Shown: in pieces, positions 113 through 17,694 of the stretch
How positions within the stretch are numbered: the stretch's first letter is position 1
Layout of the letters: every line of letters begins with the position of its first letter
Assembly: GCA_964628555.1 (NCBI GenBank)
Contig: CAZVMD010000006.1
Coordinates: 1,267 to 65,266 of the forward strand
Source: an uncultured Myxococcales bacterium
GTDB lineage: Bacteria; Myxococcota_A; Polyangia; Palsa-1104; JAEUJZ01
DNA length: 64,000 bases
Direction of reading: 5' to 3'
The notes under the pieces: generated by a model
Database searches by the model: none
Seen by the model: the letters and a program-made list of their open reading frames with translations, nothing else
What the model was told of the DNA's origin: nothing
Program-made: the position numbers and the translations under genes

Positions 113-124
113 CTTTCCTCGTGC

Positions 125-1548: not shown

Positions 1549-1765
1549 CCGCTGCGCGTTCCCCCACGGCGCTGATTCCTAAGTCAGATCGCCCTGGCTC
1601 TTTAGCCTGCTGGGCGCAGCAGCGAGCGTCTATTTGATTTCTTTGAAGTCAGCTTTTGGTTTCAAGCAAAGCTTCCTCGGTCGGCTTGGCTGTAGCGTGG
1701 GAAGCGACGCGTGGGGCGATCGCGCGCCGCTTCGTATCGCTCGTCGTGCGGCATGGGAACGAGGA

Positions 1766-3115
1766 ATGAGCACACTTCTGGCAAACGCTGCTGCCTTGGA
1801 ACAAGACCTCGCCTGGTTCGGGGAGGTCCTGGCGACTCGCTTGCGCCTGCACTTCACTCCGAATGAGCCGGGGCCGGCCACTGTCCTGGACCTTCCGCCC
1901 CCCGACCTTAGCCAGTCTGATTCGGAGTATGCTCGCTTCCTCCTGCACTATCGCTTCACGTTTGCCGAGCGCTTGGCGCTGGTCTTGGCGCTGGTGCCCC
2001 AGCTGCGGCCACAGCTCCTCGACCCGTTTTACACGCGCAGTGCCGGCACCGATCGCCGCGTCACTGACTTTGGCGGCTACTGCGAGCGCGGCGATGGCGA
2101 ATTCCTGCCGACCGGCGAGACGCTGGCCTTCCTGCTGGGCGGTGCCGACCTGGCGCTGCGCTTTCACTGTCAGCTGCTCTTCGATCCGCAGCATGTGTTT
2201 AGCCGACACCGGATTCTGCGCAGTGCCGCGCTGGTTCCTGAGCTGCCGATCATGAAGTCGCCGCTCCTGATCTCGGAGGAGCTCCTGTCTCTGTTTACGA
2301 CCGGACAGGAGCGGCGGCCGGCCTTCGGGGCCAGCTTCCCGGCCATGGCCATCGAGACCAACCTGACCTGGGACGATGTTGTGCTCTCGCCCGCGACGCG
2401 GAAGCAGGTGGAGGAGATCCGCACCTTCATCGACTACGGTTCGCAGCTTCTCAACGAGTGGGGCATGGCCGCCAAGCTGCGGCCTGGCTACCGCGCGCTG
2501 TTTTATGGCCCACCCGGCACCGGCAAGACCATGACCGCCTGCCTCGTCGGCAAGTCGAGCGGACGCGACGTCTACAAGGTCGATCTATCGCTGGTGATGT
2601 CCAAGTACATCGGCGAGACCGAAAAGAACCTGGCTCGCGTGTTCGATCAGGCCGAGCACAAAAACTGGATCCTGTTTTTCGATGAAGCCGATGCGCTGTT
2701 CGGCAAGCGCAGCGAGACCCGCGACGCGCACGATCGCTACGCTAACCAAGAAGTCGCTTTCCTACTGCAGCGCATCGAGACTTTCGACGGCATCGCCATT
2801 TTGGCCTCGAACCTGCGCGACAACGTCGATGATGCCTTCGCCCGTCGCTTCGAGTCCGTGATCTACTTCCCAATGCCGCGCGCCGAAGAGCGCCTGCGGC
2901 TGTGGCGACAAGGCTTCTCGCCGCAGGCCACGCTCGATCGCTCCGTCGATCTGGAGGCCCTGGCTCGCGAGCGCGTCCTGTCGGGCGGCGCGATCATGAA
3001 CGTCATCCGCTACGCCTCGCTGCAGGCGCTAAAGGGCGGCGGTCGTCCGATTACCGCCGACGATCTGCTGGTGGGAATTCAGCGTGAGCTGGCCAAAGAG
3101 GGCAAGGCGGCCTGA
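1766..3115 (+). CDS. AAA+ ATPase (Afp15/Pvc15-like eCIS-associated ATPase candidate)
   Basis: Walker A GPPGTGKT, Walker B ILFFDEADALF, sensor/arginine-finger region SNLRDNVDDAFARRFE. ~240-aa N-terminal non-ATPase domain. Divergent from the DUF4255 gene. The listed ORF starts at a TTG at 1634; the ATG at 1766 is preferred but uncertain. Confidence 0.8.
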   Translation: MSTLLANAAALEQDLAWFGEVLATRLRLHFTPNEPGPATVLDLPPPDLSQSDSEYARFLLHYRFTFAERLALVLALVPQLRPQLLDPFYTRSAGTDRRVTDFGGYCERGDGEFLPTGETLAFLLGGADLALRFHCQLLFDPQHVFSRHRILRSAALVPELPIMKSPLLISEELLSLFTTGQERRPAFGASFPAMAIETNLTWDDVVLSPATRKQVEEIRTFIDYGSQLLNEWGMAAKLRPGYRALFYGPPGTGKTMTACLVGKSSGRDVYKVDLSLVMSKYIGETEKNLARVFDQAEHKNWILFFDEADALFGKRSETRDAHDRYANQEVAFLLQRIETFDGIAILASNLRDNVDDAFARRFESVIYFPMPRAEERLRLWRQGFSPQATLDRSVDLEALARERVLSGGAIMNVIRYASLQALKGGGRPITADDLLVGIQRELAKEGKAA

Positions 3116-3143
3116 GCGCCGCCGCGCGTGCACTGCCCTGCGC

Positions 3144-4124
3144 CTAGCGGTCTTTCAGCCCGCTGAGCTTGCGGTCGGCGAGGATGTTGTACAGCTTGCT
3201 GATGCGGCCGCTGTCGTCGACGTCGATGGCCAGCACCGAGCGCGGGGCGATGCGCGGGGGCGGTCCGCTATGCTGCGCCACCAGGCAGGGCAGGCCGGCC
3301 AGCACCGCCAGGCTGCCTGTCCACTGTCCTTGGGATCCGCCCAGGCGCGGCACCTTGACCAGGAACAGCGAGACCGACGCGACGCCGCGCACCGGCTTGC
3401 GCGCTGCCAGATACTGGCCGCCACCGTCGTTGAGCATCACCACCTGCGGCGAGAGCAGGCCGGCCACCGCCGCCACGTCTTGCTGCGCGATGGCTAGCAA
3501 AAGCTGGGTCAGCGTGGCCTGCACCCGGGCCTGCGCCGTCTGCGAGGTATCGATGCGGGCCTGGTCGTAGCTGCTTAGCTTGCGACGACCGCGCAGGTGC
3601 ACGACCTTGACGTTGGCCTCGCTCATGTCGAGCGTGGCAGCGGTCTGTCGGACATCGAGATCGAGGACATCGCGCAGCACCAGCACGGCTCGCTGCTGCG
3701 GTGAGAGCGCTTCCAGCGCGAGCAGAAAGCCGAAGGTCAGCGACTCGCGGGTGTCGTAGCGAGCGGTCGGACTGGCTGCCTCGTCGGCTGGCTCGGCGAC
3801 CGGGCTGGGCAGCCAGGGACCGATGTACGGCGTGCGGCGGCGGCGGCGCAGGACGTCAATCGACAGGCGAGAGGCGACACGCCACAGCCAAGGGCGCAGC
3901 GGCAAAGTGAGGTCGGCGGGCGGGTGGAAAAGGAGTCGCGCGCAGGTCTCTTGCACGACATCATCAGCATCGGCGGCCGAGCCGGTGATGCGCAGCGCCA
4001 GGCCCCACAAGGCAGGGCGCTCCTTTGCGATCAGCGCGGCGAAGTCGGGCGGATCGGCAGCCGGCTTGGCTGCTTCGTCGCTGGGCTGAGGACGGGAAGA
4101 GGGTCGCGGCGACCGGTCGCTCAC
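3144..4124 (-). CDS. ECF41-family RNA polymerase sigma factor (sigma-70 region 2/4 plus a SnoaL-like C-terminal extension)
   Basis: Sigma-2 region DDVVQETCARLL. The linker motif YIGPWL is characteristic of ECF41. ~200-aa C-terminal extension. 4-nt overlap with the upstream membrane-protein gene. Confidence 0.8.
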   Translation of the reverse strand: MSDRSPRPSSRPQPSDEAAKPAADPPDFAALIAKERPALWGLALRITGSAADADDVVQETCARLLFHPPADLTLPLRPWLWRVASRLSIDVLRRRRRTPYIGPWLPSPVAEPADEAASPTARYDTRESLTFGFLLALEALSPQQRAVLVLRDVLDLDVRQTAATLDMSEANVKVVHLRGRRKLSSYDQARIDTSQTAQARVQATLTQLLLAIAQQDVAAVAGLLSPQVVMLNDGGGQYLAARKPVRGVASVSLFLVKVPRLGGSQGQWTGSLAVLAGLPCLVAQHSGPPPRIAPRSVLAIDVDDSGRISKLYNILADRKLSGLKDR

Positions 4125-4891
4125 GGAGACAGTTTATCCGCCAGCGCCTTATATTCGGGAAATCGTTCGCGTGAGGCTTCGTTGCCGCGCCACAGGATGC
4201 TGAACACGCCCGCGGTGACTACGGCGGCAAAGCCGAAGATGACCGCCAGGCGGGCTCGGCTGGGTCCGGCGGTGGGACGGGAGGCGGCAGGTGCGGCGGC
4301 GGCGCGGCGACGCAAAAGGATGCGCGAAGCGAGATGCAGGCCGATGCCAAGGTGGGTGGCTCCGGCGATGGCGAGGAGCAGATAGTAGGGCCAGAAGAAG
4401 GCCGGCACCGACAGCGCGGCATAGGCCAAAAAGGCGAAGTCGGCCTTGCCGGTTGCCGTCGGTGCGCTGGCCAAGGTCGGCGCGATGCGGGTGGCCAGGA
4501 CGTGCGGCAGGATGACGAGCAGCAGGAAGTAGCCGGCCAGGCGGTGGGCGCGCATGTAACCCGAGCCGGCCAGCGCCAACAGCTTGCGCCGGCGAATCAT
4601 CTGCACGATGGCGCAGGCGATGTGGATGCTGCCGGCCGCACCCATGATCGCGATCTCGACGGCGACGTGGGGGCGATACAGCTTGCGCAGCGCCGACAGC
4701 GTCGCGTCATAGGCCCCAGGACCGAGCAGGCCGGAGCTGGCGGTAAGCAAGTGCAGGACAAGAAAGAGGGCGAAGATGGCGCCTGAGGCGGCCTGTATGG
4801 GCCCCAGCTTGAGCTTGGCGGCCTCGGGGGATCCAGCCGCTTCGCTGGCGGTGGGAGCGGGTAGGGCAGGGGCTTGTGCTTCGTGGTCCAT
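4121..4891 (-). CDS. Multi-pass membrane protein co-transcribed upstream of the ECF41 sigma factor
   Basis: 4-5 predicted TM helices. ATG at 4889-4891 preceded by GGTGGAGG. Overlaps the sigma gene start. The track ORF starts at a GTG at 4912. Confidence 0.55.
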   Translation of the reverse strand: MDHEAQAPALPAPTASEAAGSPEAAKLKLGPIQAASGAIFALFLVLHLLTASSGLLGPGAYDATLSALRKLYRPHVAVEIAIMGAAGSIHIACAIVQMIRRRKLLALAGSGYMRAHRLAGYFLLLVILPHVLATRIAPTLASAPTATGKADFAFLAYAALSVPAFFWPYYLLLAIAGATHLGIGLHLASRILLRRRAAAAPAASRPTAGPSRARLAVIFGFAAVVTAGVFSILWRGNEASRERFPEYKALADKLSP

Positions 4892-4952
4892 GACAACCTC
4901 CACCCTATTCACGCGGGGCGCTGCGTTTGGTTACAGCGCGGCTGAAGATTTT
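4892..4952 (-). promoter_or_regulatory. Candidate ECF41-type promoter upstream of the membrane-protein/ECF41 sigma operon
   Basis: Minus-strand reading TGTAACC-N15-CGTG ...GGTGGAGGttgtcATG. The reported ECF41 target consensus is TGTCACA-N16-CGTC. Confidence 0.25.
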
Positions 4953-6068
4953 TCAGAAACCGTCGCTGTGCAGGGTGCGAGCGAGGCGGCGATAGAGCTC
5001 GCGATGGTCAAAGCCACTGATCAGATCGGGCAGCAGGTGGGCAAGCTGCCCGACCTCGTCCAGGTGATCGGCCGGCACGCAGCCCAGAAACGTGCCCCAG
5101 CGCGAAGCGGCGACGGTGACCAGGCCATCGTTGGGGATCGGCTGCAGCGGGTTCGGACTGGTCAGGGCGAAGACCGGCACGGCGACGGCGAGCAGCGGAT
5201 CCAGAAGATCGATGCGATCCGAGTTGCCCCAGACGCTGCCGGCACACTCGCTGTCGGCGATGCGGGCGCTGCTGCGGCCGGCGACGCTGTAGTACTTGAC
5301 GCGGCGGTCGTCGGGGTTCTTGGGATTGAACTCGCGCGTCATGTAGTCGCGCGATAGCTGCCGCAGCGAGGCTTGCACCTTGGCATCGCCCGGGGCGGCG
5401 GTCAGGCTCCACAGGGCGCGCAGGAGGGCGTTGATCAGATCGTAAGAGATGCCGGGGATGAGCCCGAGCGCAGCGTCGGCGACCGGCGTCCCGCGGTGCG
5501 GCGATGCAACGGTGACTAGGCCCGCGACGCGATCGCCGTAGCCCAGCGAGCTGACAAGATAGCGGGCATCGATGCCGCCCTGCGAGTGACCGATGAGGTT
5601 GACCTTGCAGGCGCCGGTGGCTCGCAGCGTGTCGTCGATGACGCTGGCCAGGTAGGTGGCGCGCACAGCCGAGCTCTCAAAAGGGGGGACCTGTGCTTCG
5701 ATGACCGTCTCGCCACGGCTGCGCAGATCGGCCGCGACCATAAAGAAGTAGTTGATCGGTCCGATGCGCTCAAAGCCGGCGAAGCCATGCGCGAGGACGA
5801 TGGGATAGGGGGCGCCGCGACAGCTACCGAGTGCCGCGACTGACTGCGCCAGCGCCGCCTCGTCTTCGGCGGGCCCGCCGCAGGCCGCAAGCTGAGCGAC
5901 GCCCAGCACGGCAGACAGGCAGATGGCGAGGCGAGCCCAGCGCCGGCTTATGCCGCTCGCTAGCCGTGCCTGCCGACGAGGCTCTGGACGAACGGGCGGT
6001 GCAGAGAGCGGACGAGCAGAGCGGAAGAACGACGGACGGGCAGATAGAGGACGGAGAGACCGGGACAT
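4953..6068 (-). CDS. Secreted triacylglycerol lipase/esterase (alpha/beta hydrolase, Pseudomonas-type lipase family)
   Basis: Oxyanion HGF (VLAHGFAGF) and nucleophile elbow GHSQGG. Lipobox-like LAAC signal after an N-terminal extension. Strong RBS GGAAGGAGG before the ATG at 6068. Confidence 0.7.
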   Translation of the reverse strand: MSRSLRPLSARPSFFRSARPLSAPPVRPEPRRQARLASGISRRWARLAICLSAVLGVAQLAACGGPAEDEAALAQSVAALGSCRGAPYPIVLAHGFAGFERIGPINYFFMVAADLRSRGETVIEAQVPPFESSAVRATYLASVIDDTLRATGACKVNLIGHSQGGIDARYLVSSLGYGDRVAGLVTVASPHRGTPVADAALGLIPGISYDLINALLRALWSLTAAPGDAKVQASLRQLSRDYMTREFNPKNPDDRRVKYYSVAGRSSARIADSECAGSVWGNSDRIDLLDPLLAVAVPVFALTSPNPLQPIPNDGLVTVAASRWGTFLGCVPADHLDEVGQLAHLLPDLISGFDHRELYRRLARTLHSDGF

Positions 6069-6173
6069 GGGAAGCCTCCTTCCAGCGCGCGATAGGTGGG
6101 CGAATCAAAGCACGCTGGCCGGAGATTTGGCAGTCGCAAGCGGCTGCGGGTCGGATGTCCCCGACGGGCCGTG

Positions 6174-6503
6174 CTACTGGCTGGGGCCCGCTGGCGGCTG
6201 GCTGCTGTGCTCGCGCTTGCGCTGCAGGAACAGCTTGATGGTCGCCAGGATCGCGATCGCTGAAAGGCCCGGGCAGACGATGCCGAAGAAGATCCACAGC
6301 AGCATGCGGTTAAAGCCCTGCTGCTCAGCGCTGCCGAGGCGACCATTCCAGTACAAGATCGAGAGCCCAACGCCGAGGGCGCTAAACAACAGATAGGTTC
6401 CGCTGCGCGCCTGACCGGCCTGGGGCGAGCCCGGGCTGGCTGGATTCTTGGTCAGTGCCTGCTTGCTGCTGCTGTCTTTGCCGCTGTCTTGATCGGTGGC
6501 CAT
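6174..6503 (-). CDS. Small two-TM membrane protein (paralog of 11975..12184)
   Basis: Hydrophilic S/K/D-rich N-terminus, then 2 TM helices. Clear homology to the 69-aa ORF at 11975..12184 (RSGxYLLFSAxGxxLxIxxW...LLxxIxxGIxxPGxxxIxILxxIKxF). ATG at 6503 with AGGGA nearby; the alternative ATG is at 6533. Confidence 0.5.
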   Translation of the reverse strand: MATDQDSGKDSSSKQALTKNPASPGSPQAGQARSGTYLLFSALGVGLSILYWNGRLGSAEQQGFNRMLLWIFFGIVCPGLSAIAILATIKLFLQRKREHSSQPPAGPSQ

Positions 6504-6647
6504 GTCCCTGTCCCATCCCGCTGCACGGCTCATGATATCTTCAAATGCGGCCGGCTTCGGCTGCGCGTTTGCAGGCGGGTGCTAGGCGTCTGTCTGGCCC
6601 AGCCTTCGATGCCGCGGCGGCCGGCTCTGTCCCACGACTCCGTCACC

Positions 6648-7853
6648 ATGATTCGCTATGGCTCCAGCTTTCGCGCGGCCGATATCAAGACGACGCTGGC
6701 GCATGCGCAGGCCATCGCGCCCCAGCTGGGTATCAGCCGCGTCACCGAGGTGACGTACCTCGATCGCATCGGCGTCCCGGTCTTCGTCGCGATTCGGCCG
6801 GATGCGCAGCCGGGATCGGTATGTGTCAGCGCCGGCAAGGGCATGACCGCGGCCGAGGCCCGCATCGGGGCCTACATGGAGGCCATCGAGCTAGCCTGGG
6901 CTGAGTACCGGCGCACCCAGTTTCCCCTGCAGAGCCTGCCCAGCGGCGAGGTCCTCGACGGGCGCAGCCGCCCCGAGGCCCTGCTGGATTTCTGTCCGAG
7001 CTGGGGGCAGTTTCTCGACCGCAGCGCCGAGATGTGGTGTGTGCCGGCGCAAGACATCGTCAGCGGCGAGACCTGGCAGATTCCCGCCGAGACGGTCTTT
7101 CATCCGCTGCCGGCTGAGCTGGGCGGCGCGCGCTACTTCGGCTCGGGCAGCAATGGCCTGGCCTCGGGCAACAGCGTGCTGGAGGCGACGGTGCACGCGC
7201 TCGCTGAGGTCATCGAGCGCGATGTCACCAGCTTCCACAACGCCCGCGATGCCTCGCGCCTGATCGCCGCCGCCAGCCTGCCGGAGCCGATCGCCGGCCT
7301 GCTTGCTCACCTCAACGCGCAGGGCTTTGAGCTGGTGGTGCGCGGTCTACCGAACCCCTTTGGCCTGCCGTGCTTTATGGCGGTCTCGTTCGATCGCACC
7401 CAGCCTGAGGTGACGCTGCGCGGCGACGGCTGTCATCCGGTGCGCTCGATTGCGCTGTTGCGCGCGGTGACTGAGACCATCCAGTGCCGGCTGAGCCTGA
7501 TCCATGGCGGCCGCGACGATCTGGCCAATGTCCATCGTCCCTTCAAGGCCCTATCGCCCGAGGAAAAAGCCGAGGTCTATGCCAAGGTGCTGGGCGGACT
7601 CCTGCGCGATCCGCAGCCGCTGGCCTACACCGACCTGCCCGATCACGCCGACCAGATCAGCAGCCTGGAGTCTTGCCTGGGGCTCCTCGTTGCTCGCCTG
7701 CACGCCCTTGGCTTTCCCCGCATCCTGCGTTTTGTCTACACGCCGCCGGACTACCCGGTGCAGGTGGTGCGCATCGTCGTGCCGGGGCTGGAGTGCTATT
7801 CGCGCGACACCAATCGCATCGGTCCGCGGCTGCGGAGGTATCTGCGTGTCTGA
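6648..7853 (+). CDS. ycaO: YcaO-domain protein (TfuA-partnered, thioamide-forming type)
   Basis: YcaO hallmark GSGSNGLASGNSVLEATVHALAEVIERD, plus IGVPVFVAIRPD and GAYMEAIE. Stop overlaps the tfuA start. The start may instead be the ATG at 6609. Confidence 0.85.
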   Translation: MIRYGSSFRAADIKTTLAHAQAIAPQLGISRVTEVTYLDRIGVPVFVAIRPDAQPGSVCVSAGKGMTAAEARIGAYMEAIELAWAEYRRTQFPLQSLPSGEVLDGRSRPEALLDFCPSWGQFLDRSAEMWCVPAQDIVSGETWQIPAETVFHPLPAELGGARYFGSGSNGLASGNSVLEATVHALAEVIERDVTSFHNARDASRLIAAASLPEPIAGLLAHLNAQGFELVVRGLPNPFGLPCFMAVSFDRTQPEVTLRGDGCHPVRSIALLRAVTETIQCRLSLIHGGRDDLANVHRPFKALSPEEKAEVYAKVLGGLLRDPQPLAYTDLPDHADQISSLESCLGLLVARLHALGFPRILRFVYTPPDYPVQVVRIVVPGLECYSRDTNRIGPRLRRYLRV

Positions 7854-8541
7854 GGTCTGGCTGTACGCCGGTCCGACGCTGCTGCGCGCGCAGGCCATCG
7901 AGCCCGGGCTGTCGCTTGCGGGCATCTCGGTGCTGCCGCCGATTGGCCGCGGTGATCTGCCACGTCTGCTGCGCTCGCCGGCGGCGGCCCGGCCGGGCTG
8001 CATCGTCATTGTCGATGGCCTGTTTCATCTGCGGCTTTCGGTGGGGCACGCCGAGCTGCGCAGCGCGCTGGTCAGCGGCTTTCGCGTCTTCGGCCTGTCT
8101 TCGATGGGCGCGATTCGAGCCCGCGAGATGGCGCACCTGGGGATGGAGGGCTTCGGGCAGATCTATGAGCTGTACTGCCAGGCCGGGATCGACTTTCGCG
8201 ACGACGAAGTGACGCTGCTGCACGACCCCGAGCCGCCGTATCGCGAGCTCTCTGAGCCGCTTGTGCACCTGCGAGCCGCGGTGCGAGATCTGGTCCAGCT
8301 GGGGCTCTTGCCAGAACAGGCCGGCGAGGCGGTGATCGAGAAGCTGTCCCGCTCGTGGTTCGGCGATCGCACGCTGCCGATCCTGCGCGCGCTGCTTTCT
8401 GCGCAGGGGCTCGACGCGGCGGCGCTGGCGGCGATCGATGCCCGCTTGGCGGACTTCAACCGCTATCGACAGAAGGCGCACGATCTAATCGCCTTCCTGC
8501 AGCAGCGACCGGATCGTCAGCCGCGCTCTACTGCGCCCTAG
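7846..8541 (+). CDS. tfuA: TfuA-like protein (YcaO partner for peptide backbone thioamidation)
   Basis: GTG at 7846 overlaps the ycaO stop by 8 nt. N-terminus VWLYAGPTL...LPPIGRGDL and the length (~230 aa) match the TfuA family. Co-oriented and coupled with ycaO. Confidence 0.75.
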   Translation: MSEVWLYAGPTLLRAQAIEPGLSLAGISVLPPIGRGDLPRLLRSPAAARPGCIVIVDGLFHLRLSVGHAELRSALVSGFRVFGLSSMGAIRAREMAHLGMEGFGQIYELYCQAGIDFRDDEVTLLHDPEPPYRELSEPLVHLRAAVRDLVQLGLLPEQAGEAVIEKLSRSWFGDRTLPILRALLSAQGLDAAALAAIDARLADFNRYRQKAHDLIAFLQQRPDRQPRSTAP

Positions 8542-9764
8542 CTTGCGTGTTGCTGTGCTGCGGCCAGCGCGGCGTAGAAGCGCTCGCTGGGCGAAGGCAG
8601 CGCCCGCACTTGTGCGGTGTACAGAGCTTGCCGCTGTCGCTGCAGCGCTGCGCCCGCTTCGCCCAGGAGCTCGTCTAGCGTCGCCAGAAAACCGGCCTCG
8701 TCCAGGACGTCGACGCCGGCGATGGCGTCGAGGTATGGGTTGCCCTGCAGCACCGGCGCAAGGAGCTGCGACAGGCTGAGCGGCCAAGCGCGAAACGGGT
8801 ACAGCCCGCCGGCGCGTGCGACAAAGGTCTGGGCGGCCGCGGACGCCGGGGCCCGACTGACATCAGCAAGGCTGCCGATTAGCACCGGGACCTGTGCGGC
8901 CAGCGCGGCCATGACAGTTGTGGCGGCGATGTTGAAGCTGAGCAGCAGATCACTGGCCGCAAGCAGGCGCAGAAACTCGCTCGCCGGCTGCTGCGGTAGG
9001 TGGCGATAGCGGTCGCCTAGCCCGGCCGCTGCGGCGAACGGCTCGGGACCGATGTGCAGGACCCGCAGCGGGGTCGCCCCTTTGGGGTTCGCCAGATAGT
9101 GCGAAAGATAGGTACAGATCAGCTCGGGCAGCGCGTCCGCCATGCGCTGGCGGACCGGATGCAGCTGCTGCGAGGCGTGCTGCCACGCCGCGGATGGCCA
9201 GAAGATCAGCCTCTCACCGGGGCTGACACCGAGCGCCTGTCGCACCTGCGCTCGCTCCGCGGGCTCCAGAGTGATGGGCGGGGGTAGGGCATTGTAGGCG
9301 CCTGCGGCGGTCGGACGGACAAACGGCACCGGCACCAAGCGGTGGAGCACTTGCTTGACGTCTGGCCCGAGCTGAAATGTCTCGGGGTGGTAGTCCCAGT
9401 GCAGGCCGGCCTCGGGGACATTCCAGACATCGAGCGCAAGGACCGGAATCCCCGACTGCAGGAAGGTGTCAAAGCGACGGCCGCTGATGCCGAAGAACGT
9501 GTACACCGCGACCAGATCAATCAGCACGATGCTGTCGCAGCCCTCGCTGCGTGCGGTGTCGAGGATGGCTTCGTCCAAGCGGCTGAGTGCCAGATCAATG
9601 CGGCCATAGCGCACAGGCGCGGCGCGGATCGTCTTCTGTAGACCTGACGGCCCCAAGAACAGGACGCGGTCCCCCGCTGCGTGCAGGGCAGTGGCGAGCT
9701 GAACCCCCAGCAAGGCCTCGCCAAATCCCATGGCTGTAGCGGCAACAAACAAGTGCTTTCGCAT
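8538..9764 (-). CDS. GT-B-fold glycosyltransferase-like protein (degenerate; function unknown)
   Basis: ~409 aa. N-terminal Rossmann-like VLFLGPSGL. A C-terminal segment SDLLLSFNIAATTVMAALAAQVPVL resembles the MurG/GT1 donor-binding helix pattern. ATG at 9764. Convergent with tfuA and overlapping it by 4 nt. Confidence 0.4.
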   Translation of the reverse strand: MRKHLFVAATAMGFGEALLGVQLATALHAAGDRVLFLGPSGLQKTIRAAPVRYGRIDLALSRLDEAILDTARSEGCDSIVLIDLVAVYTFFGISGRRFDTFLQSGIPVLALDVWNVPEAGLHWDYHPETFQLGPDVKQVLHRLVPVPFVRPTAAGAYNALPPPITLEPAERAQVRQALGVSPGERLIFWPSAAWQHASQQLHPVRQRMADALPELICTYLSHYLANPKGATPLRVLHIGPEPFAAAAGLGDRYRHLPQQPASEFLRLLAASDLLLSFNIAATTVMAALAAQVPVLIGSLADVSRAPASAAAQTFVARAGGLYPFRAWPLSLSQLLAPVLQGNPYLDAIAGVDVLDEAGFLATLDELLGEAGAALQRQRQALYTAQVRALPSPSERFYAALAAAQQHAS

Positions 9765-9910
9765 GGATACGCCCACCCAGGGTTCATCGTAGCACGCCTC
9801 GTCGCTGACTAGGTTCCGCTGCCGAGCCCACGTGCTATCATCGACCGCGGGGCAATTCACGCACCTTCCGCGGGCGGCTGCCGATGACTCGGTTGAAGGG
9901 GTAACACTAC

Positions 9911-10735
9911 ATGGGCGAGCACGGGAACGAACACCAGGGTGGAGAGCACGGCGGTGAGCATCATGGGCCGCTGGGCCTCATGGGTCATATCGCGCACTAT
10001 GTCGGGGCGGGTGCACACGCGCTGCATCACCCGGCGGTGCACCATGCTCTGGAGCACGCCGGCAAGTTCGGCCACGCCGTCGCCGGTCCGCTAGGCAAGG
10101 CGCTGCCCTATGTCGGCGCCGTCGCTGGCACAGCGCAGGCCGGGATCGAAGGCTACGAGGCCTACGAGGCCTTCAAGCACGGTGGCGTGCATAACGATCA
10201 GGCCTGGGAGAAGGTCGGCGGCTCGGTGCTGGGTGGCGCGGGCGCGGCGCTCAGCTTCACGCCCTACGGCGCGGCGCTGGGACTCGGTGAGCTGGCCGTC
10301 GATGGCCTCGGCGCGCTGTCCGGCAAGGTGCTGGGCGAAGATGCGTCGTTTAACTCGGCGCAGGTAGTCGGTGGCGCCATCCGCGGCATGGTCGGCGACA
10401 AGTCGATGGGCTGGAAGGCCGGGACCGCGGTCTCGAACGCGCTCGGTGGCGGCTTCTGGGGCAACGCCGCGGGTGTGGCCACGGGAGCGGTGACCAACGC
10501 CGTCGCGGCGCCGGTAAACGCGCTCAACACGGTCGGCGGTGGCCTCGTCAACTGGGTCGGCAATGCGCTCGACTCGACGCCCGGCAAGCAGGACTACTGG
10601 GGCCAGGGCCTCAACGCAGTGGGCGGCGCGATCACCAGCGGGGCTAGCGCGGTCGGTGGTGCGCTCACCCGAGGCGCTGGCGCCGTCGGTCGCGGGCTGG
10701 GTCGCGCAGCCAGCTGGGTCGGCGGGCTCTTCTAA
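9911..10735 (+). CDS. Histidine-rich N-terminus / glycine-alanine-rich protein (274 aa), function unknown
   Basis: Good RBS GAAGGGG 9 nt upstream of the ATG. The first ~60 aa contain ~15 His (HGNEHQGGEHGGEHHG...HALHHPAVHHALEH). The rest is Gly/Ala-rich with GxxxG-type spacing. No signal peptide. Divergent from the GT-B-like gene. Confidence 0.5.
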   Translation: MGEHGNEHQGGEHGGEHHGPLGLMGHIAHYVGAGAHALHHPAVHHALEHAGKFGHAVAGPLGKALPYVGAVAGTAQAGIEGYEAYEAFKHGGVHNDQAWEKVGGSVLGGAGAALSFTPYGAALGLGELAVDGLGALSGKVLGEDASFNSAQVVGGAIRGMVGDKSMGWKAGTAVSNALGGGFWGNAAGVATGAVTNAVAAPVNALNTVGGGLVNWVGNALDSTPGKQDYWGQGLNAVGGAITSGASAVGGALTRGAGAVGRGLGRAASWVGGLF

Positions 10736-10969
10736 GCCGCGATCGTACTCGGCCGTCTCGTCGCTCCGTCGCCAGGGCCCGTCGGGCCCTCGCTTCCCCC
10801 TCATCCCTTCACATTCCTGATGCCCTTCTTCCGCTGGCTGGCCGAAGTGCAGCAGCGCAGGTCACGTCGCGCACTTCCGAACCGCTGGTTCTCGCTACTG
10901 CACGCGCTGCCGCAGCCAGCTGTCTTGGCGGCCAGCCTCTGAATCTTCGCCGTCGGCGACGCGGCATTC

Positions 10970-11875
10970 ATGTACACTTTTGCTATGCAGCTTGTGAATA
11001 TGCTCTCGGGCTGGGCCAAGATGCCGATGGCCGATGGGATTGTCCTTGTACCGCAAGAGGGGCCGCAAGCCGGGGGGATTCGCATCCATGAGCGCTGTCG
11101 CCCGCTGCGCCGCTTCAGCGCCATCCTGACCGACATCATCGCGGGTCTGCCCGAGCACCATACGTCGCTGCAGATCGGCCCGCTGCAGCGGCTGGTGACG
11201 CACGAAGGCGAGCATGCCGGACTGATCACGCTGACCGCCAAGACCCAGGACGGGGGACCGGCCGAGCGCACCATCGGCATCATCCTCGGCGATGACAGCT
11301 ACGCCATGGTGGATGGCGCGGTGATCAAGCCCGAGCGCTTTGCCGAGGTGCGGCAGATGGTGCAGCTGATCACCGAAGGCTTCTTCCTGGGGCTTGGGGA
11401 TCAGCGTCGCCGCCGCTACTTCTTTACCCCGCCTTCTGGCTGGCGCGGCCTGGGGCGAGTTCACACCAGCCGCTACTACCATCCGCAGTACCCGCGCGAG
11501 CCGGCCATCATTACGGTCCACGATACTCGGCCGGCCACGGTCACCGTTTCTGAGGTCACGGATCGGCTGCTGTTTCAGGACTTCACTGGCGGTCTAGAGC
11601 GCGATCCGCCGGCGCCGCCGACCCCGATCGTGGCGCGCAGTGGGCTGGCGGGTCAGATTGTGCGGATCAGCGGGCACCATCCCTCGGGTCGGCACCTGGC
11701 CTTCGTGCAGGCCACGCTGGTCGACAGTCGCTTTTCGTACACCATCGTGCTGGAGACGACGGTGGAGGCGCTGCCCAAGCACCTGCCCACCCTGACCGAG
11801 ATGGCGCTGTCGATCGTGCCTGTGCCACCGCGCAAGACGCAGAGTGCGAGTGCGCTGATTGCCTGGGCCGATTAG
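10970..11875 (+). CDS. Hypothetical protein (301 aa)
   Basis: Long ORF with ordinary amino-acid composition and no recognisable motif. Several in-frame ATGs (10970-11027), so the start is uncertain. Confidence 0.45.
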   Translation: MYTFAMQLVNMLSGWAKMPMADGIVLVPQEGPQAGGIRIHERCRPLRRFSAILTDIIAGLPEHHTSLQIGPLQRLVTHEGEHAGLITLTAKTQDGGPAERTIGIILGDDSYAMVDGAVIKPERFAEVRQMVQLITEGFFLGLGDQRRRRYFFTPPSGWRGLGRVHTSRYYHPQYPREPAIITVHDTRPATVTVSEVTDRLLFQDFTGGLERDPPAPPTPIVARSGLAGQIVRISGHHPSGRHLAFVQATLVDSRFSYTIVLETTVEALPKHLPTLTEMALSIVPVPPRKTQSASALIAWAD

Positions 11876-11974
11876 GCAGGCCACGGGCGACGCGGAAACG
11901 ATTCCGCTGACCGCGCCGCCAGGCTGCGCTAGGCTGCCCCGTACAGCACTTTACTTTCGAGACTGAGGGTCGAG

Positions 11975-12184
11975 ATGGGCGAAGCGAGATCGGGTCTATA
12001 TCTGCTGTTTAGCGCCATCGGCATCGCGCTGGCGATCGCGTTCTGGTATCCGCGGTTGCCGCCGGAAAAACGTCAGGGCTGGCTGAAGCTCCTCGTGACC
12101 ATTTACTTGGGCATCACGATCCCGGGCGTGGTGGTGATTGGCATCCTGTGGTTGATCAAAAAGTTCGTCCTGCATAACGCCTAG
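11975..12184 (+). CDS. Small two-TM membrane protein (paralog of 6174..6503)
   Basis: 69 aa, two hydrophobic helices, homologous to the C-terminal 2/3 of the 6174..6503 product. Lies in inverted orientation relative to its paralog. Confidence 0.5.
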   Translation: MGEARSGLYLLFSAIGIALAIAFWYPRLPPEKRQGWLKLLVTIYLGITIPGVVVIGILWLIKKFVLHNA

Positions 12185-12209
12185 GCTGCACAGCCGAGGA
12201 GCACAGCCG

Positions 12210-12710
12210 ATGAAGTTGCAACTGCCGGTTCGTCCCGAGTGGCCGCAGAAACAGATCCCGCAGGGCTTGGTGGTACAGCTTGCCCCCGAGGTCACGCTGT
12301 TTAGCGAAGTCTGCCTGCCGCTGCCCTTTGACCTGCAGCGCTGGGGCGATCAGGTCGTGATGTTTAACGTGCCGCCGGGGCAGCTCGTGGTCCACGCGGT
12401 GACCGACGGCGTGACGCGCGCTGGCTGGCCGGTGACGCTGGTCAAGTCGGATGTCCTCGACCGACCCGGCGGGCAGGCACAGCTACGCCGCATTCACGCG
12501 CTGTATCGCTTTACGCAGTACGGCGCCGTGGCTGTCGTCGTCGGGCCGCCGTCGCGCATGGATGCGCTGGAAGGCGACTTGGTCAACTTCTTGGCTGAAG
12601 GCCAGCCCGACTTTGCCAGCGATGAGGTGATCGCCCTGGCCGAGGTGTTCGAGGGCATAGCCGAGGTCGTGCTCACCCCCGCCGGCGCGCCGCCTGCCCC
12701 CAGCCCCTAG
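12210..12710 (+). CDS. Hypothetical protein (166 aa), immediately downstream of the small membrane protein
   Basis: ORF 25 nt after the previous stop. No recognisable motif. Confidence 0.45.
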   Translation: MKLQLPVRPEWPQKQIPQGLVVQLAPEVTLFSEVCLPLPFDLQRWGDQVVMFNVPPGQLVVHAVTDGVTRAGWPVTLVKSDVLDRPGGQAQLRRIHALYRFTQYGAVAVVVGPPSRMDALEGDLVNFLAEGQPDFASDEVIALAEVFEGIAEVVLTPAGAPPAPSP

Positions 12711-12727: not shown

Positions 12728-14179
12728 CTAAAGAGCGCTGGCGCACTTGGCCGCTGGCTGTGGCTGGCACTTCGAGGCCGGCAGCGGCATCCCGGCCTTG
12801 CGCGCGTCGAAGAAGTTGAACACGTCATCCATCGAATCGGTGATGGTGTGGACGTGATCGGCTCCGGCGCACTGCAAGTACTGCACCTGGGCTCCCTTCT
12901 GGCACCACGAGGCCATCACCGGATCATTGGCCGCCGGAATCACCGTCGTGTCTTTGTCGCCGGTGACATACAGGATCGGCACGCTGGTGTTGACCGGCAG
13001 GCTCATCGTCGCCGGGTTGTTGTAGTGCAGCCAGCAGCTCCAGGGATCGTTCTTCTGGTTCTGCGTGACGGCGCCGAGGAACGGCATGGTGAACACCTGC
13101 GCCGGGTCGGTGACGTTCTTGATCGGATCGCTGTAGCTGCTATTGCAGTAGTTCTTAAGCTGCGTCAGCGCTGTACCATCCCAGGGCGGCAGCAGCGAGC
13201 GTGAGATCTGGCTGCGATCGTAGTAGTCGCTCCAGGTATAAGCGATGGCTTGGCCCAGGTTGTAAGTGGGCGCGGGACCGGCGAAGTTGGCGCGCGCACT
13301 CTCGGGCAGGTCGGCCGGCGGTGACACGGCGGCGGCACCCTTGAGCGTAAACTCCGGCGCGTAGAACGGCTGCATCGCCAGCGTGTACTGCACCGCTTGT
13401 GCCCCCTGCGAGTGACCCCACAGATACATCTCGCTGGTGGCGCTGACGCTCTCGTTGGCGGTGAGATATTTCTGCGCGGCGCGCGCCGCATCCAGCGAGG
13501 CCAGAGCCGTCGGCTCCAGCAACAGATACGGCGAGGTGGCCGTCGATGCCGCGCCCAGGCTGCGCTGGTTGAGGTAGTCGGGAAACACCGCGACATAGCC
13601 GGCCGAGGCCATCAGCATCGAGAGGATGGTCATCGGGGCGGTAAAGTCGCCGGCCTTGCGCGACGGCGCGCACTCATCCGTGTAGCCAAGCGTCGGGTGC
13701 AGGAAGAGCACGATAGGGAAGCTCTTGCCGCTGGCGGTTGGCCACGTCACCATCGCCGTCGCATCGACTAGCTGACCGCGATCCTGCGTCTGATAGCGCA
13801 CCGTGGCGGTATGCACGCCGTACTGCGGCGAGCGGTGCACATTGAGCTGCGATCCCAAGAACGCCACCGCCTGCAGCGTCGAGATGAACAGCGTGTTGGC
13901 GCCCAGGAAGTTCTTCGACTTCTGCAGCACGTTGCCCATGCTGGTGCTCGGCTGCCAGCTATACGCGGTCTGGCCGCAGATCGCCGGGCTCTTGGCATCC
14001 CAGGGCGGAAACATCGGCGTCATCGGGGTGTCGCCCCCGTCGCCGCCGCCGCCATCTAGGTTGCCATCCCCGCCATCGGGGTTATCGGTGCCGCTACTCG
14101 ATGTGCCGCCGCAGGCCACCGAAAACGACAGAGCCAAGGCTAAAGAGATCGAGACCTGTTTGCTGCGCCGCATCTGCAT
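12728..14179 (-). CDS. Secreted lipoprotein lipase (secretory-lipase / LIP family alpha/beta hydrolase)
   Basis: Lipobox LSFSVAC after MQMRRSK. GAGGGGG RBS 4 nt before the ATG at 14179. Nucleophile motif GHSQGA. Size and layout fit the PF03583-type secretory lipase family. Confidence 0.6.
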   Translation of the reverse strand: MQMRRSKQVSISLALALSFSVACGGTSSSGTDNPDGGDGNLDGGGGDGGDTPMTPMFPPWDAKSPAICGQTAYSWQPSTSMGNVLQKSKNFLGANTLFISTLQAVAFLGSQLNVHRSPQYGVHTATVRYQTQDRGQLVDATAMVTWPTASGKSFPIVLFLHPTLGYTDECAPSRKAGDFTAPMTILSMLMASAGYVAVFPDYLNQRSLGAASTATSPYLLLEPTALASLDAARAAQKYLTANESVSATSEMYLWGHSQGAQAVQYTLAMQPFYAPEFTLKGAAAVSPPADLPESARANFAGPAPTYNLGQAIAYTWSDYYDRSQISRSLLPPWDGTALTQLKNYCNSSYSDPIKNVTDPAQVFTMPFLGAVTQNQKNDPWSCWLHYNNPATMSLPVNTSVPILYVTGDKDTTVIPAANDPVMASWCQKGAQVQYLQCAGADHVHTITDSMDDVFNFFDARKAGMPLPASKCQPQPAAKCASAL

Positions 14180-14287
14180 TCGCCCCCTCGTGCAGACAGA
14201 AACCAACAGCATGATATCAAGTGCCGGACCTCCGACGCATGCTTGGTTTTTTTGGTCGGCAGGCGAATGACTCTAGAATTTCGAGTC

Positions 14288-15976
14288 ATGCGCATGCAAA
14301 AAGCCACCCTGTCGAGACTTCTTGTCGGTCCGCTGCTGTTTTCGCTGCTGCTGTCAGCGTGCAAAGAGGAGCAGCCGGTACCGCCGCCCGCGGTCAATCC
14401 AGCGGGGCCGGCCGGCGCGCCTGCGGCGACTGCAGCCGGAGCTACGCAGCCTGCGGTCGTCGAGAAGCCGGCGGCCGCGCCCAAGGCTCCGGTTGGTATG
14501 CAGAACCCGTTTCCCCACCTGACCACCGAAGCCTCAGCGCCGTTTAATCGCGGCTGGGCCGCGCTCAAAGCCAAGAAGTATGAGGACGCTGCGACGGCCT
14601 TTGGCGAGGTGGGGACGCAGCTTCCTGACTACCTGAATGCTCGCTATCAAGCGGCGCGCGCCCTTGTGCTGGCCGGCAAGCTGGCCGAGGCCCGCGCCCA
14701 GTTTGAAGAGCTCCTGCGACGGAGCTACGTCGGCTACTCCGATCGGATCAGCAAGCAGAAGGAGCTAGCGCCGTTTCGCGCCTCCGCCGAGTGGGCGGCG
14801 TATCAGCAGGCCGAAGCCCGGGTGCGCGCCGACTATGCCGAAGGCCTAGCTCAGGGGCTGGTGCTCGTCGCCCGCGCCGGTGCTGTCGACCCGCTGGCCT
14901 TCGCTGCCAGCAAGACCGCCGGGGTACAGGAAGCGAAGCTCGACTGGAAGCAGGAGGTCTATCACTACGACGTCGCGGCAGCGCGCTTTCGGCCGCTCAC
15001 GGCGAGCGATGGTCATGTCCTGGTGGCGCTGCGCTCGCCCGATGGCAAGCGACTGGTCTTTGTCACTGCTGACCGGGTTGCGCGCCTGGAGAAAGACGCT
15101 GCCGATCCGCGCGCCAAGGTCTGGTTCGTCGAGCCGCAGCTCTACTTCCTCGACCTTGGCAGCCTCGATTTGGCTGGCCCGATCAAGCTGGTCGGGGGCT
15201 ATGAAGAGCTGACGATTGGCTTTGGCCAGAGCGGCACGGCGCTGCTTTCGACTCCCGGCGTGGTGGCGGGCAGCGGGGAGGGGACCGCCGCCGGCACCTA
15301 TGAGATGGACACCGCGCGCACCGGCCTGACCAAGGCGGCCAGCGACCCCGACTTCAGCGGCGAGCGCGTGGTGATTCGTCCCGACCGCCTGCTGCGCAGC
15401 GAGCGCCCCGCTCCGGCCGGTGTGACCGTAGCCGAAGATCGTCACAGCCTGCGCCTGGGCAGCAGTGGGGCGGTCATCACCTCGGCGCGCACCTTATCGC
15501 CCACATCGCTGGCCTGGTCGCCGAACCAGGCGCTGTTTGCCTACGCTGGTCAGCTGGATAGCTGCGCGGCCCTGCGCGACGAAAAAGCCAAGGCGGCGCA
15601 GAACGAGCTCTTCATCTATGAAGTCGAAAAGAAGAGCGCGCAGCGCATCGACAGCGGGGCTAGCCAGTTCGAGCTGCAGTGGCTGAGCGAAAACCTCCTT
15701 GCCTACGAGAGTGGGGCGGGCGCCAAGGCGAGCCTTCACCTGTACGACGTGGCGGCGCGCAAGAAGACGACGCTGCCGCTCAAAAATGGCGCTGGCTTCG
15801 TCGGCCTGCCGACCCTGTCCTGTGGCCCGCCCGCCTCGGCTGCGACTGCCGCTCCCGCCGCTGCCCCCGCCCCGCCCGCGCCGGCCCCCGCCGCTCCCCC
15901 TGCGGCCGCTACTCCGCCTGCCCCTGGCAGTGCCGGTTCGCCCCCGTCCGCTGCTCCGGCTGCCGCTGCCCCGTAG
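14288..15976 (+). CDS. Lipoprotein with an N-terminal TPR-like region, a TolB/WD40-like beta-propeller region and a Pro/Ala-rich tail
   Basis: Signal plus lipobox LLLSAC. Segments like VALRSPDGKRLVF and LAWSPNQALFAY fit a beta-propeller. The C-terminal tail is PA-rich low-complexity. Confidence 0.55.
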   Translation: MRMQKATLSRLLVGPLLFSLLLSACKEEQPVPPPAVNPAGPAGAPAATAAGATQPAVVEKPAAAPKAPVGMQNPFPHLTTEASAPFNRGWAALKAKKYEDAATAFGEVGTQLPDYLNARYQAARALVLAGKLAEARAQFEELLRRSYVGYSDRISKQKELAPFRASAEWAAYQQAEARVRADYAEGLAQGLVLVARAGAVDPLAFAASKTAGVQEAKLDWKQEVYHYDVAAARFRPLTASDGHVLVALRSPDGKRLVFVTADRVARLEKDAADPRAKVWFVEPQLYFLDLGSLDLAGPIKLVGGYEELTIGFGQSGTALLSTPGVVAGSGEGTAAGTYEMDTARTGLTKAASDPDFSGERVVIRPDRLLRSERPAPAGVTVAEDRHSLRLGSSGAVITSARTLSPTSLAWSPNQALFAYAGQLDSCAALRDEKAKAAQNELFIYEVEKKSAQRIDSGASQFELQWLSENLLAYESGAGAKASLHLYDVAARKKTTLPLKNGAGFVGLPTLSCGPPASAATAAPAAAPAPPAPAPAAPPAAATPPAPGSAGSPPSAAPAAAAP

Positions 15977-16053
15977 CGACGGATTTCACACAGCTTTGCA
16001 AATCTCCAAAAAAGGCCGCATAGGCCTTGCTCCGACGGAGTACCATCGTTTTG

Positions 16054-17694
<1,641 letters not shown>

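Follow-up and report, generated by a model that had tools for sequence, protein, structure and literature searches.

The DNA analyzed here (the window) is a stretch of 64,000 nucleotides from an uncultured Myxococcales bacterium (contig CAZVMD010000006.1 of assembly GCA_964628555.1). At positions 6174-12710 it carries a cassette of eight protein-coding genes around a ycaO-tfuA pair. We found that the neighbors of this pair are co-inherited with a single clade of YcaO proteins, that the most constant of these neighbors are two proteins that we term u301 and u166, and that the cassette has no match to the short precursor genes of sister YcaO clades. The features of the cassette are as follows (coordinates are those of the window).

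6174-6503, minus strand: sm109, a small membrane protein (paralog A), 109 amino acids according to the gene callers, with two predicted transmembrane (TM) segments
6648-7853, plus strand: ycaO, 401 amino acids (PF02624, E = 4e-59, full-length domain)
7846-8541, plus strand: tfuA, 231 amino acids, GTG start (PF07812, E = 4e-32)
8538-9764, minus strand: DUF6365 putative glycosyltransferase with a predicted GT-B fold, 408 amino acids (PF19892, E = 3e-53)
9911-10735, plus strand: HG274, a Gly/Ala-rich protein of 274 amino acids (recognized by its composition and by homologues beside the cassette in other loci)
10771-10793, plus strand: a GC-rich hairpin 36 nt past the HG274 stop, possibly an attenuator or a terminator without a U tract (weak evidence)
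10970-11875, plus strand: u301, a protein of 301 amino acids with a predicted tandem PsbP/Mog1/DcrB fold and no Pfam or NCBIfam match
11975-12184, plus strand: sm69, a small 2-TM membrane protein (paralog B), recognized by its paralogy with sm109 and its hydrophobic stretches
12210-12710, plus strand: u166, an acidic protein of 166 amino acids with no Pfam or NCBIfam match and with homologues beside ycaO

An open reading frame (ORF) map together with profile searches confirmed every gene that an earlier note on this DNA had described, at the coordinates that the note gave. The gene junctions are also as it described: tfuA starts at a GTG that overlaps the ycaO stop (by 8 nt, as checked in the junction sequence), and the tfuA stop meets the end of the convergent GT-B-like DUF6365 gene at 8538 with an overlap of 4 nt. 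The intergenic gaps of the cassette are 17-234 bp. The sm109 ORF reaches 6533 if extended to an upstream ATG, and the DUF6365 ORF extends to 9860 (440 amino acids). The likely start of DUF6365 is M33 of that ORF, as an identical 408-amino-acid protein is in the database and this N-terminus is conserved; the exact 440-amino-acid form is not in the database, and one gene caller chose 397 amino acids. A scan for promoter and terminator consensus sequences gave no signal over the shuffled expectation, and none of the eight cassette proteins matched the anti-phage defence models of PADLOC.

YcaO matches PF02624 along the entire profile (positions 1-325 of 325; 200.9 bits, cutoff 25.7), which places it in the superfamily, and its GAxMEAIE motif is invariant across the alignment of its clade. 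TfuA, which acts as the sulfur provider in such systems, matches PF07812 with 111.1 bits (cutoff 30). Because tfuA is also adjacent to ycaO and in the same orientation, as is typical of TfuA-dependent thioamide-forming YcaO systems, the two are probably a genuine thioamidation-type pair, as the earlier note had supposed. The best NCBIfam match of YcaO is TIGR03266, the YcaO of McrA-glycine thioamidation (213.9 bits, under the 365-bit cutoff), and TfuA scores 118.6 bits against NF033432 (under the 235.2-bit cutoff). As both proteins fall below the equivalog cutoffs, the pair appears to form a distinct subfamily, to which the McrA type is the closest. The nearest solved structures are M. jannaschii MJ1094 for YcaO (6PE3, E = 5e-35) and 6XP8 for TfuA (E = 2e-20). 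The YcaO does not belong to the stand-alone S12/uL16 type (NF040716; 39.6 bits, cutoff 700) or to the SagD-type cyclodehydratases that form azolines in thiazole/oxazole-modified microcins (TIGR03604; 85.2 bits, cutoff 219), and a Pfam scan of the genes of 6174-12710 found no E1-like domain, no recognition element (RRE) of peptides that are made on ribosomes and modified after translation (RiPPs) and no dehydrogenase domain. (JGI labels homologues as "S12 methylthiotransferase accessory factor", which is a generic annotation; the NF040716 cutoff is not reached.)

We fetched 79 genomic loci around YcaO homologues, with a flank of up to 10 kb, and searched each of them with every window protein. 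(We refer to individual loci by number, as in L001.) In a neighbor-joining tree (without support values) that was built from the 84 YcaOs of the window and these loci, all those that are linked to u301 or u166 fall in a single clade, whose sole additional member is L053. Co-occurrence was counted over 80 YcaO loci, with 11 in the clade and 69 others, and the counts are limited by contig ends. Either u301 or u166 is present in the fetched DNA of 10 of the 11 clade loci (u166 homologues in 8) and in 0 of the 69 others (P = 7e-12, Fisher's exact test). DUF6365 (7/11 versus 0/69, P = 1e-7) and HG274 (6/11 versus 0/69, P = 2e-6) are likewise confined to clade loci. These P values somewhat overstate the significance, since related genomes contribute loci that are not independent of one another; the overall pattern, with presence in one clade and absence from the rest, is nonetheless clear. 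The earlier note had set linkage across homologous loci as one test of its proposal, and by the single clade and the 10/11 versus 0/69 count the genes are linked.

The cassette neighbors are co-inherited with this YcaO clade despite shuffled gene orders. In two metagenome-assembled genomes with YcaOs that are 84-85% identical to ours (L001 and L002), the region is syntenic with the window, and so are the flanks (both in L001, the left flank in L002). In the Myxococcota-like loci L003, L004, L005, L006, L010, L038, and L071 (YcaO 42-60% identical; L004 is from Haliangiales and L005 from Kofleriaceae), the same families lie near ycaO with the order and orientation shuffled. At this distance, u301 and u166 are kept, often together with DUF6365 and HG274. 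Of the window genes, ycaO-tfuA alone is retained in loci from Acidobacteriota, Bacteroidota, Pseudomonas, Burkholderiales, and Actinomycetota. The smallest arrangement is a one-strand operon, u166-u301-ycaO-tfuA, with an adjoining CARME-like methyltransferase gene (L038). L003 keeps a u301-ycaO-tfuA linkage, u301 is divergent from ycaO in L006, and in L071 u301 is convergent with tfuA and ycaO-tfuA is placed between a TerB gene and u301. Some loci have further enzymes: GT41 in L004 and L005, a CmcI-like methyltransferase and an APH kinase in L005, and a PhyH dioxygenase and a B12-radical S-adenosylmethionine (SAM) enzyme in L010. (The 9.7-kb contig of L003 has two copies each of ycaO, tfuA, and u301 at 1867-9738, along with two tandem small 2-TM genes, DUF6365, and u166, and its two YcaOs sit in different sub-branches of the clade.)

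In the sister clades, a precursor gene of 50-150 codons lies directly upstream of ycaO. The precursor family of Pseudomonas and actinobacteria has the motif "...NDExxM(R/H)AGFVxHESNN", and the Pseudomonas-type loci also carry genes for a 91-amino-acid ThiS-like protein that ends in AGG and for ThiF-rhodanese, MFS, and SprT-like proteins. The acidobacterial family has two "AKVxLDxxxVxxFExxLRxGLVASGAVM" repeats, and its loci also have a gene for a Ser/Thr kinase fused to tetratricopeptide repeats (TPR). Profiles of both families found no match in the window, L001-L006, L010, L038, or L071. The largest gap of the cassette, of 234 bp, is poorly conserved and indel-rich among the window, L001, and L002 and is not kept as coding sequence, and the cassette contains no conserved small ORFs besides those of the 2-TM proteins. 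As the earlier note had observed, a short precursor is absent, and this clade of YcaO appears to have lost the kind of precursor gene that its sister clades carry. The idea that HG274, u301, or u166 derives from the sister-clade precursors was rejected (hhalign probabilities of at most 0.13%), and the acidobacterial upstream peptide family is unrelated to u301 and u166. The genomic context is also, as the earlier note had argued, unlike those of the thioamitides and of McrA: the partners are u301/u166, a GT-B enzyme, and a Gly-rich protein, with no short precursor and no mcrA in the region examined. (Examples of the short putative precursors of sister clades are at 9666-9929 of L025, 1900-2187 of L046, and 4607-5050 of L007, and about 45 loci have one in a similar position.)

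We turn to the two constant partners. The AlphaFold2 model of u301 (pLDDT 78.2, from a shallow alignment of 15 sequences) has two alpha/beta domains, and the two halves of the protein are homologous to each other (hhalign 95%). In the model, both have the PsbP/Mog1/DcrB-like fold, which is a non-catalytic binding fold, and the fold matches include Tsi3 and TplEi, which are immunity proteins of type VI secretion systems (T6SS), and the T6SS Eag chaperones SciW and EagT6. An exhaustive profile search found 744 representatives of the u301 family (clusters at 50% identity), 466 of them with E of 1e-30 or less, and nearly all are about 290 amino acids long; the representatives contain no Pfam domain and the family has no Pfam model. 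Across 58 diverse members (27% mean column identity), G80, E81, R146, R148, P155, and Y257 are invariant and T77, E79, D108, L142, G143, R149, and W158 are nearly so, which defines the family motifs TxEGE (77-81) and LGxxRRRR (142-149). Residues R146-R149 are modeled in an inter-domain coil (pLDDT of the block, 58). Three family members are fusion proteins in which an N-terminal u301 precedes one or two modules of the GT4 glycosyltransferase type.

u166 has a weak full-length hhalign match to the C-terminal domain of u301 (38% probability, E = 3e-4, 128 columns), so it is possibly a single PsbP-like domain. It has no Pfam or PDB match, and a relaxed Pfam scan of its homologues gave only noise. 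Sequence-profile searches of the PDB with u301, u166, DUF6365, and HG274 found nothing significant. Neither u301 nor u166 has a signal peptide. Their isoelectric points are 8.8 and 4.7, respectively, and the isoelectric points of YcaO and the candidate partners do not discriminate among those candidates. u301 and u166 are the only proteins that are common to all three cassette types of this YcaO clade (the window type, the minimal type of L038, and that of L071). So, of the "three unknowns" of the earlier note, the genes are real, and they are not orphans: they belong to conserved families, and two of them, u301 and u166, are the most constant partners.

u301 and u166 also occur with other enzymes. 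Homologues of u166 are present in the u301 loci L086, L088, L089, and L090, which lack YcaO, and L092 has a 142-codon gene at the equivalent position. L088 and L089 share a TerB-like protein, a protein of 260 amino acids, radical-SAM enzymes that bind B12, an FkbH-like protein, two hydroxylases of the JmjC_2 family, and a u301-GT4-GT4 fusion; L092, on a shorter contig, has the same core (radical SAM, u301, the TerB-like protein, and the 260-amino-acid protein). L071 is a cassette of the L088 type with ycaO-tfuA added: radical-SAM genes and an FkbH-like gene lie alongside, its 260-amino-acid protein is 64% identical to that of L088 and 58% to that of L092, and its TerB-like protein is 57% identical to that of L088. 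L086 contains two copies each of u301 and u166, together with DUF6365, a homologue of HG274, an FAD oxidase, and a pyruvyl transferase. In L090, the genes that come after u301 encode a protein with 27% Gly, a u166-like protein, and acetyltransferases. Overall, the enzymes around u301/u166 are YcaO-TfuA, B12-radical SAM, JmjC_2, GT41, GT4, and DUF6365 proteins, CARME-like and CmcI-like methyltransferases, PhyH/2-oxoglutarate (2OG) oxygenases, and an APH kinase. Thus, the associated enzymes vary, all of them belong to modifying-enzyme families, and most of these families have known peptide or protein substrates. (L071 also has a Cys/Gly/Ala-rich ORF with CGGAAC and CGGD repeats at 18614-19048, plus strand, about 6-7 kb from several radical-SAM genes. 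It overlaps a called gene of 415 codons and may be a peptide substrate or an artefact of high GC content.)

DUF6365 is a Pfam family with no characterized member, and our literature search found no paper on it. The AlphaFold2 model of the window protein (pLDDT 87.4, predicted TM-score 0.88) has a GT-B fold of two Rossmann-like domains, which bears out at the level of fold what the earlier note had called GT-B-like. Foldseek found 415 PDB matches with E of 0.001 or less (best E = 9e-11, probability 1.0, TM-scores of 0.5-0.6), and the top 50 are all GT-B glycosyltransferases (VinC, MshA, EryCIII, UrdGT2, and others) except for one UDP-GlcNAc 2-epimerase, which is itself of GT-B fold. The identity to these structural matches is just 10-16%, and neither the PDB profile search nor the Pfam search found a sequence match to a characterized glycosyltransferase family; one of five DUF6365 homologues has a weak match to Glyco_transf_4 (E = 0.0016). 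So, we consider DUF6365 a putative glycosyltransferase on the basis of the model. Other DUF6365 loci contain genes for NTP_transferase, polysaccharide pyruvyl transferase, methyltransferases, a 2OG oxygenase, and radical-SAM proteins, and a metagenome scan with the DUF6365 alignment found at least one locus (1.4 kb).

HG274 is 23% Gly and 17.5% Ala, with 16 His, no Cys, a His/Glu-rich N-terminus, no signal peptide, and no Pfam or PDB match. The earlier note had described it as both Gly-rich and His-rich: the Gly-richness holds, and the His-richness is lineage-specific and is not conserved in the homologues. It contains 26 overlapping small-xxx-small-xxx-small motifs, which make it glycine-zipper-like by composition only. 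Homologues adjoin the cassette in L001, L002, L004, L005, and L010, and another (E = 2.6e-10) is in the DUF6365 locus L086, whose 9.5-kb contig carries no YcaO; HG274 shares a Gly-rich core of about 110 residues with the proteins of L004, L005, L010, and L086. DUF6365 tracks the Gly-rich protein. HG274 was not found in L006 or L071 (21 kb each) or in L038, all of which carry this clade of YcaO, so it is not the most constant partner, and the earlier note's choice of the 9911-10735 product as the candidate substrate does not hold up well. (In L087, which has no YcaO nearby, a gene at 5775-7790, plus strand, encodes a Gly-rich protein of at least 672 amino acids, with 16% Gly overall and up to 32 Gly per 100 residues. 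It is preceded by a DUF6365 gene, about 0.9 kb upstream, and then by a glyoxalase-like gene, which supports the pairing of DUF6365 with Gly-rich proteins. In L005, the HG274 homologue at 1-1233, minus strand, has a long C-terminal array of acidic/aromatic repeats of about 20-30 residues (DWVGDRANDAWDFVEPGVDYV...), and a related motif, AWDTV(S/T)SW, ends the homologues in L010 and L086.)

The hairpin behind HG274 has the centroid structure GGGCCC-GUC-GGGCCC and was not called by the consensus terminator scan. At the same position after the Gly-rich gene, L001 (about 8644-8673) and L002 (about 14037-14072) have GC-rich hairpins that are not homologous to it (z = -2.8 and -2.5), which suggests that an attenuator or a terminator without a U tract is conserved in the three relatives.

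We tentatively propose, with less than even confidence, that 6174-12710 is neither a mobile island nor a RiPP cluster for short peptides but one conserved, vertically inherited protein-modification cassette in which YcaO-TfuA thioamidates a cassette-encoded protein, with u301/u166 as the target. We favor this target because the short precursors seem to have been lost and because u301 and u166 are the only universally co-inherited proteins. As we infer it, YcaO would activate a backbone amide with ATP and TfuA would supply the sulfur, which would leave a backbone thioamide on the basic PsbP-fold hub u301 and/or on its acidic partner u166, with HG274 as the second candidate. (The activation of the backbone amide by YcaO with ATP is established for McrA and the thioamitides, PMC13063428.) The modified site would be in a flexible, exposed segment, and the inter-domain linker with LGxxRRRR is a speculative first choice. 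DUF6365 would be a second, separable module that co-occurs with HG274 and probably glycosylates HG274 or the hub, and the 2-TM paralogs would be accessory membrane components that may handle, or protect against, the glycine-zipper-like HG274.

Several observations weigh against this proposal. L053 belongs to the clade and has neither u301 nor u166, although its contig stops 298 bp upstream of ycaO. In L004 and L006, ycaO is of this clade and tfuA was not found within the fetched DNA (11.9 kb and 21 kb, respectively; that of L004 includes only about 0.7 kb upstream of ycaO). (The YcaO of these loci may act without TfuA, or tfuA may be encoded elsewhere.) The u301-GT4 fusions would be more typical of a substrate-recruiting adaptor, as in RRE fusions, than of a substrate, and the invariant motifs of u301, which are kept whatever enzymes are present, may reflect a constant binding function rather than modification sites. 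A complex of u301 with u166 would be a guess from their charges alone, and the link of YcaO to u301/u166 is drawn from genomic context. Also, with no exporter in the cassette and no signal peptide on u301 or u166, the product would be a modified cytoplasmic PsbP-like protein without an obvious purpose.

The main alternative is that HG274 is the substrate, which we consider possible but on the unlikely side. HG274 would then receive thioglycines from YcaO-TfuA and sugars from DUF6365, as a "giant RiPP" or a modified bacteriocin, and u301/u166 would be adaptors or chaperones: PsbP/Eag-like proteins would keep HG274 soluble and present it as RRE domains do, with self-protection by the 2-TM paralogs. 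McrA is thioamidated on a Gly. HG274 homologues directly adjoin ycaO in L004 and L005 and lie close to it in L010, and in the window, L001, and L002 their neighbor is DUF6365; further Gly-rich proteins are encoded after u301 in L090 and together with u301/u166 in L086. The hairpin past the HG274 stop is as found after many structural genes, and the u301-GT4 fusions resemble adaptor-enzyme fusions. SciW and EagT6, two Eag chaperones that have the fold of u301, bind hydrophobic effector helices (PMC7773334), and there are known bacteriocins of the glycine-zipper type that are paired with membrane immunity proteins (PMC5380434). However, HG274 is missing from L006, L038, and L071 despite the same clade of YcaO, its homologues in L086 and L090 have no YcaO nearby, the 2-TM proteins are in some loci only, no exporter or leader peptidase is in the cassette, and HG274 has no detectable similarity to the sister-clade precursors. 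If, instead, the substrate is encoded elsewhere (a housekeeping protein such as a ribosomal protein, for example) or is an undetected small peptide, then u301/u166 could be regulatory or could be specificity subunits of YcaO. Small peptide genes are easily missed in DNA of 65-70% GC, and the YcaO of E. coli modifies uL16, which is encoded far from ycaO, with no small ORF near it (PMC13063428). We think this unlikely given that the operon-level linkage of u301/u166 is strong, is specific to the clade, and survives the shuffling of gene order, that sister clades keep their substrates adjacent to ycaO, and that the gaps in the window are 17-234 bp, the largest of them unconserved.

It is improbable, in our view, that the non-enzymatic genes are a toxin/immunity/chaperone module that is functionally independent of YcaO-TfuA, with HG274 as a glycine-zipper toxin that is perhaps delivered by the neighboring contractile injection system, and with immunity from the 2-TM proteins and from PsbP-like proteins similar to Tsi3 and Tli4. 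The fold matches of u301 to Tsi3, TplEi, and the Eag chaperones would fit, as would the layout, which is like that of a glycine-zipper toxin with a small membrane protein, and genes of an extracellular contractile injection system (eCIS) are 3 kb away at 970-3115. But the eCIS is adjacent in the closest relatives only, u301/u166 have no signal peptide, unlike T6SS immunity proteins against periplasmic toxins, PADLOC found no match, and independence contradicts the clade-specific co-inheritance. The earlier note had instead seen an island that is bracketed by the inverted 2-TM genes, and a mobile genomic island or composite element that is delimited by them would account for two homologous, inverted genes near the ends of the segment. 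The two are true paralogs: sm109 and sm69 are 48% identical over 64 residues (E = 1e-19) and both have hydrophobic stretches. They do not bracket the segment, as u166 lies outside sm69. At the DNA level, their inverted similarity is 51 nt at 78%, within the coding sequences, so this is no pair of terminal repeats. The base composition stays even throughout the region, with no discontinuity in GC or skew. The genes examined included no transposase, integrase, or tRNA, and synteny extends over both flanks in L001 and over the left one in L002. Members of the 2-TM family recur in L001, L002, L003 (two copies), and L010; they are members of the cassette, not boundary elements. Composition, synteny, and the short, coding-internal similarity effectively refute the mobile island, and we give it almost no weight.

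Among known systems, the McrA pair of methanogens is the closest family. It has the same two-enzyme architecture, is the best NCBIfam and PDB match, acts on a protein, and needs no RRE or cyclodehydratase partner. It differs in that the window proteins score under the equivalog cutoffs, the host is bacterial (Myxococcota-like), the region examined has no mcrA, and the window pair is accompanied by proteins of predicted PsbP fold, a GT-B enzyme, and a Gly-rich protein. To our knowledge, protein backbone thioamides are known from two cases only, methyl-coenzyme M reductase (McrA) and the ribosomal protein uL16, and in both the substrate gene is not beside the enzyme gene. The Arg hydroxylase of uL16, YcfD/RoxA, is of the JmjC type. 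The YcaO of E. coli thioamidates folded uL16, next to an Arg that another enzyme hydroxylates (Rice et al. 2026, PMC13063428), so together with McrA there is precedent for YcaO action on folded proteins. The uL16 system resembles ours in having a YcaO with no nearby short ORF, and JmjC_2-family genes are in related u301 cassettes; in contrast, the E. coli YcaO has no adjacent TfuA and its substrate is unlinked, while in the window the candidate protein substrates are in the same operon. The clusters with short precursors in sister clades, and those for thioamitides and thiovarsolins, have YcaOs that are 38-50% identical and the same ycaO-tfuA order and style of overlap. They differ in that u301/u166 were not found in those loci, and the window cassette lacks the upstream precursor and the ThiS-like, ThiF-rhodanese, MFS, SprT-like, or kinase-TPR genes.

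u301 is like the Eag chaperones (DUF1795) at the level of the predicted fold alone, with no membership in the DUF1795 family of Pfam and no PDB sequence match, and it differs from these chaperones, Tsi3, and TplEi in its own invariant TxEGE and LGxxRRRR motifs and in having no signal peptide. No T6SS-related Pfam domain was found in the genes scanned in or beside the cassette, although no search was aimed at prePAAR or PAAR. VinC, EryCIII, UrdGT2, and MshA, which are glycosyltransferases of natural products and of the cell envelope, share the predicted GT-B fold of DUF6365 at the low identity given above. The Caulobacter bacteriocins CdzC/D are about 100 amino acids long, and HG274 is much larger. 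It resembles these and other glycine-zipper proteins (CdzC/D with the immunity protein CdzI, PMC5380434; effectors of T6SS and of type VII secretion systems) in its Gly-richness, its small-xxx-small motifs, and its adjacent small membrane proteins; it differs in having no detected homology to them, and 6174-12710 contains no type I secretion system or other exporter.

The enzyme chemistry is thus known in kind, and the cassette context is not described in the literature that we searched. A global survey of TfuA clusters mentions a Corallococcus family only and does not describe this architecture; nor does the literature on GT4 "conflict systems" (PMC8195603). The papers that our searches on YcaO, TfuA, and thioamidation returned describe no PsbP-fold partners, although the combination itself was not searched for directly. 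It is conceivable, if doubtful, that the window holds a third kind of protein backbone thioamidation, within undescribed "hub-and-spoke" hypermodification cassettes in which interchangeable enzyme modules (YcaO-TfuA, B12-radical SAM, JmjC, GT-B/GT4/GT41, and methyltransferases) modify the u301/u166 pair or are directed by it onto a bound cargo such as HG274. In our data, such cassettes come mostly from Myxococcota-like genomes. Should the hub prove to be an adaptor or a target of modification, it would represent a new organizing principle for gene clusters of ribosomal natural products or of protein modification, and a source of new enzyme-substrate pairs. In any case, the partners within the operon make a small, testable set of candidate protein substrates (u301, u166, and HG274), DUF6365 gains a predicted fold (GT-B) and a genomic context, and the u301 family is exposed as an uncharacterized but constant element of cassettes with many different protein-modifying enzymes.

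Outside the cassette, 125-3115 of the window is the end of an eCIS locus, with Pvc16_N (970-1548, minus strand), an AAA ATPase (1634-3115, plus strand), and a 282-codon gene. Pvc16 and the ATPase are adjacent to the cassette in the window and L002 (with CIS_tube and gp19 tube genes further out in L002), weaker copies are in L091, and L001 has the ATPase only; eCIS genes are not adjacent in L003-L010, L038, or L071. As this adjacency is limited to close relatives, we rejected the idea that a link to the injection system is a cassette property. In the stretch from the eCIS genes to the cassette, a gene for a sigma factor of the extracytoplasmic function type (3144-4124, minus strand) overlaps by 4 nt with one for a hydrophobic protein of 263 amino acids (4121-4912, minus strand), which may be an anti-sigma factor; this pair is syntenic in L001 and L002. 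Downstream of the cassette, 14243-17694 encodes a TPR protein (577 amino acids) and a Ser/Thr kinase (555 amino acids; 16027-17694). We considered this kinase as a counterpart of the fused kinase-TPR gene next to tfuA in sister clades and rejected it, as the similarity is that of generic kinase domains (35% identity). Finally, two different genes for secreted lipases or alpha/beta-hydrolases flank the cassette at 4953-6068 and 12728-14212. One of the products resembles PGAP1/DUF676 and has an N-terminus of the lipoprotein type, the other is a member of the LIP family of secretory lipases, and a PGAP1-like gene is also near the u301 locus L090.

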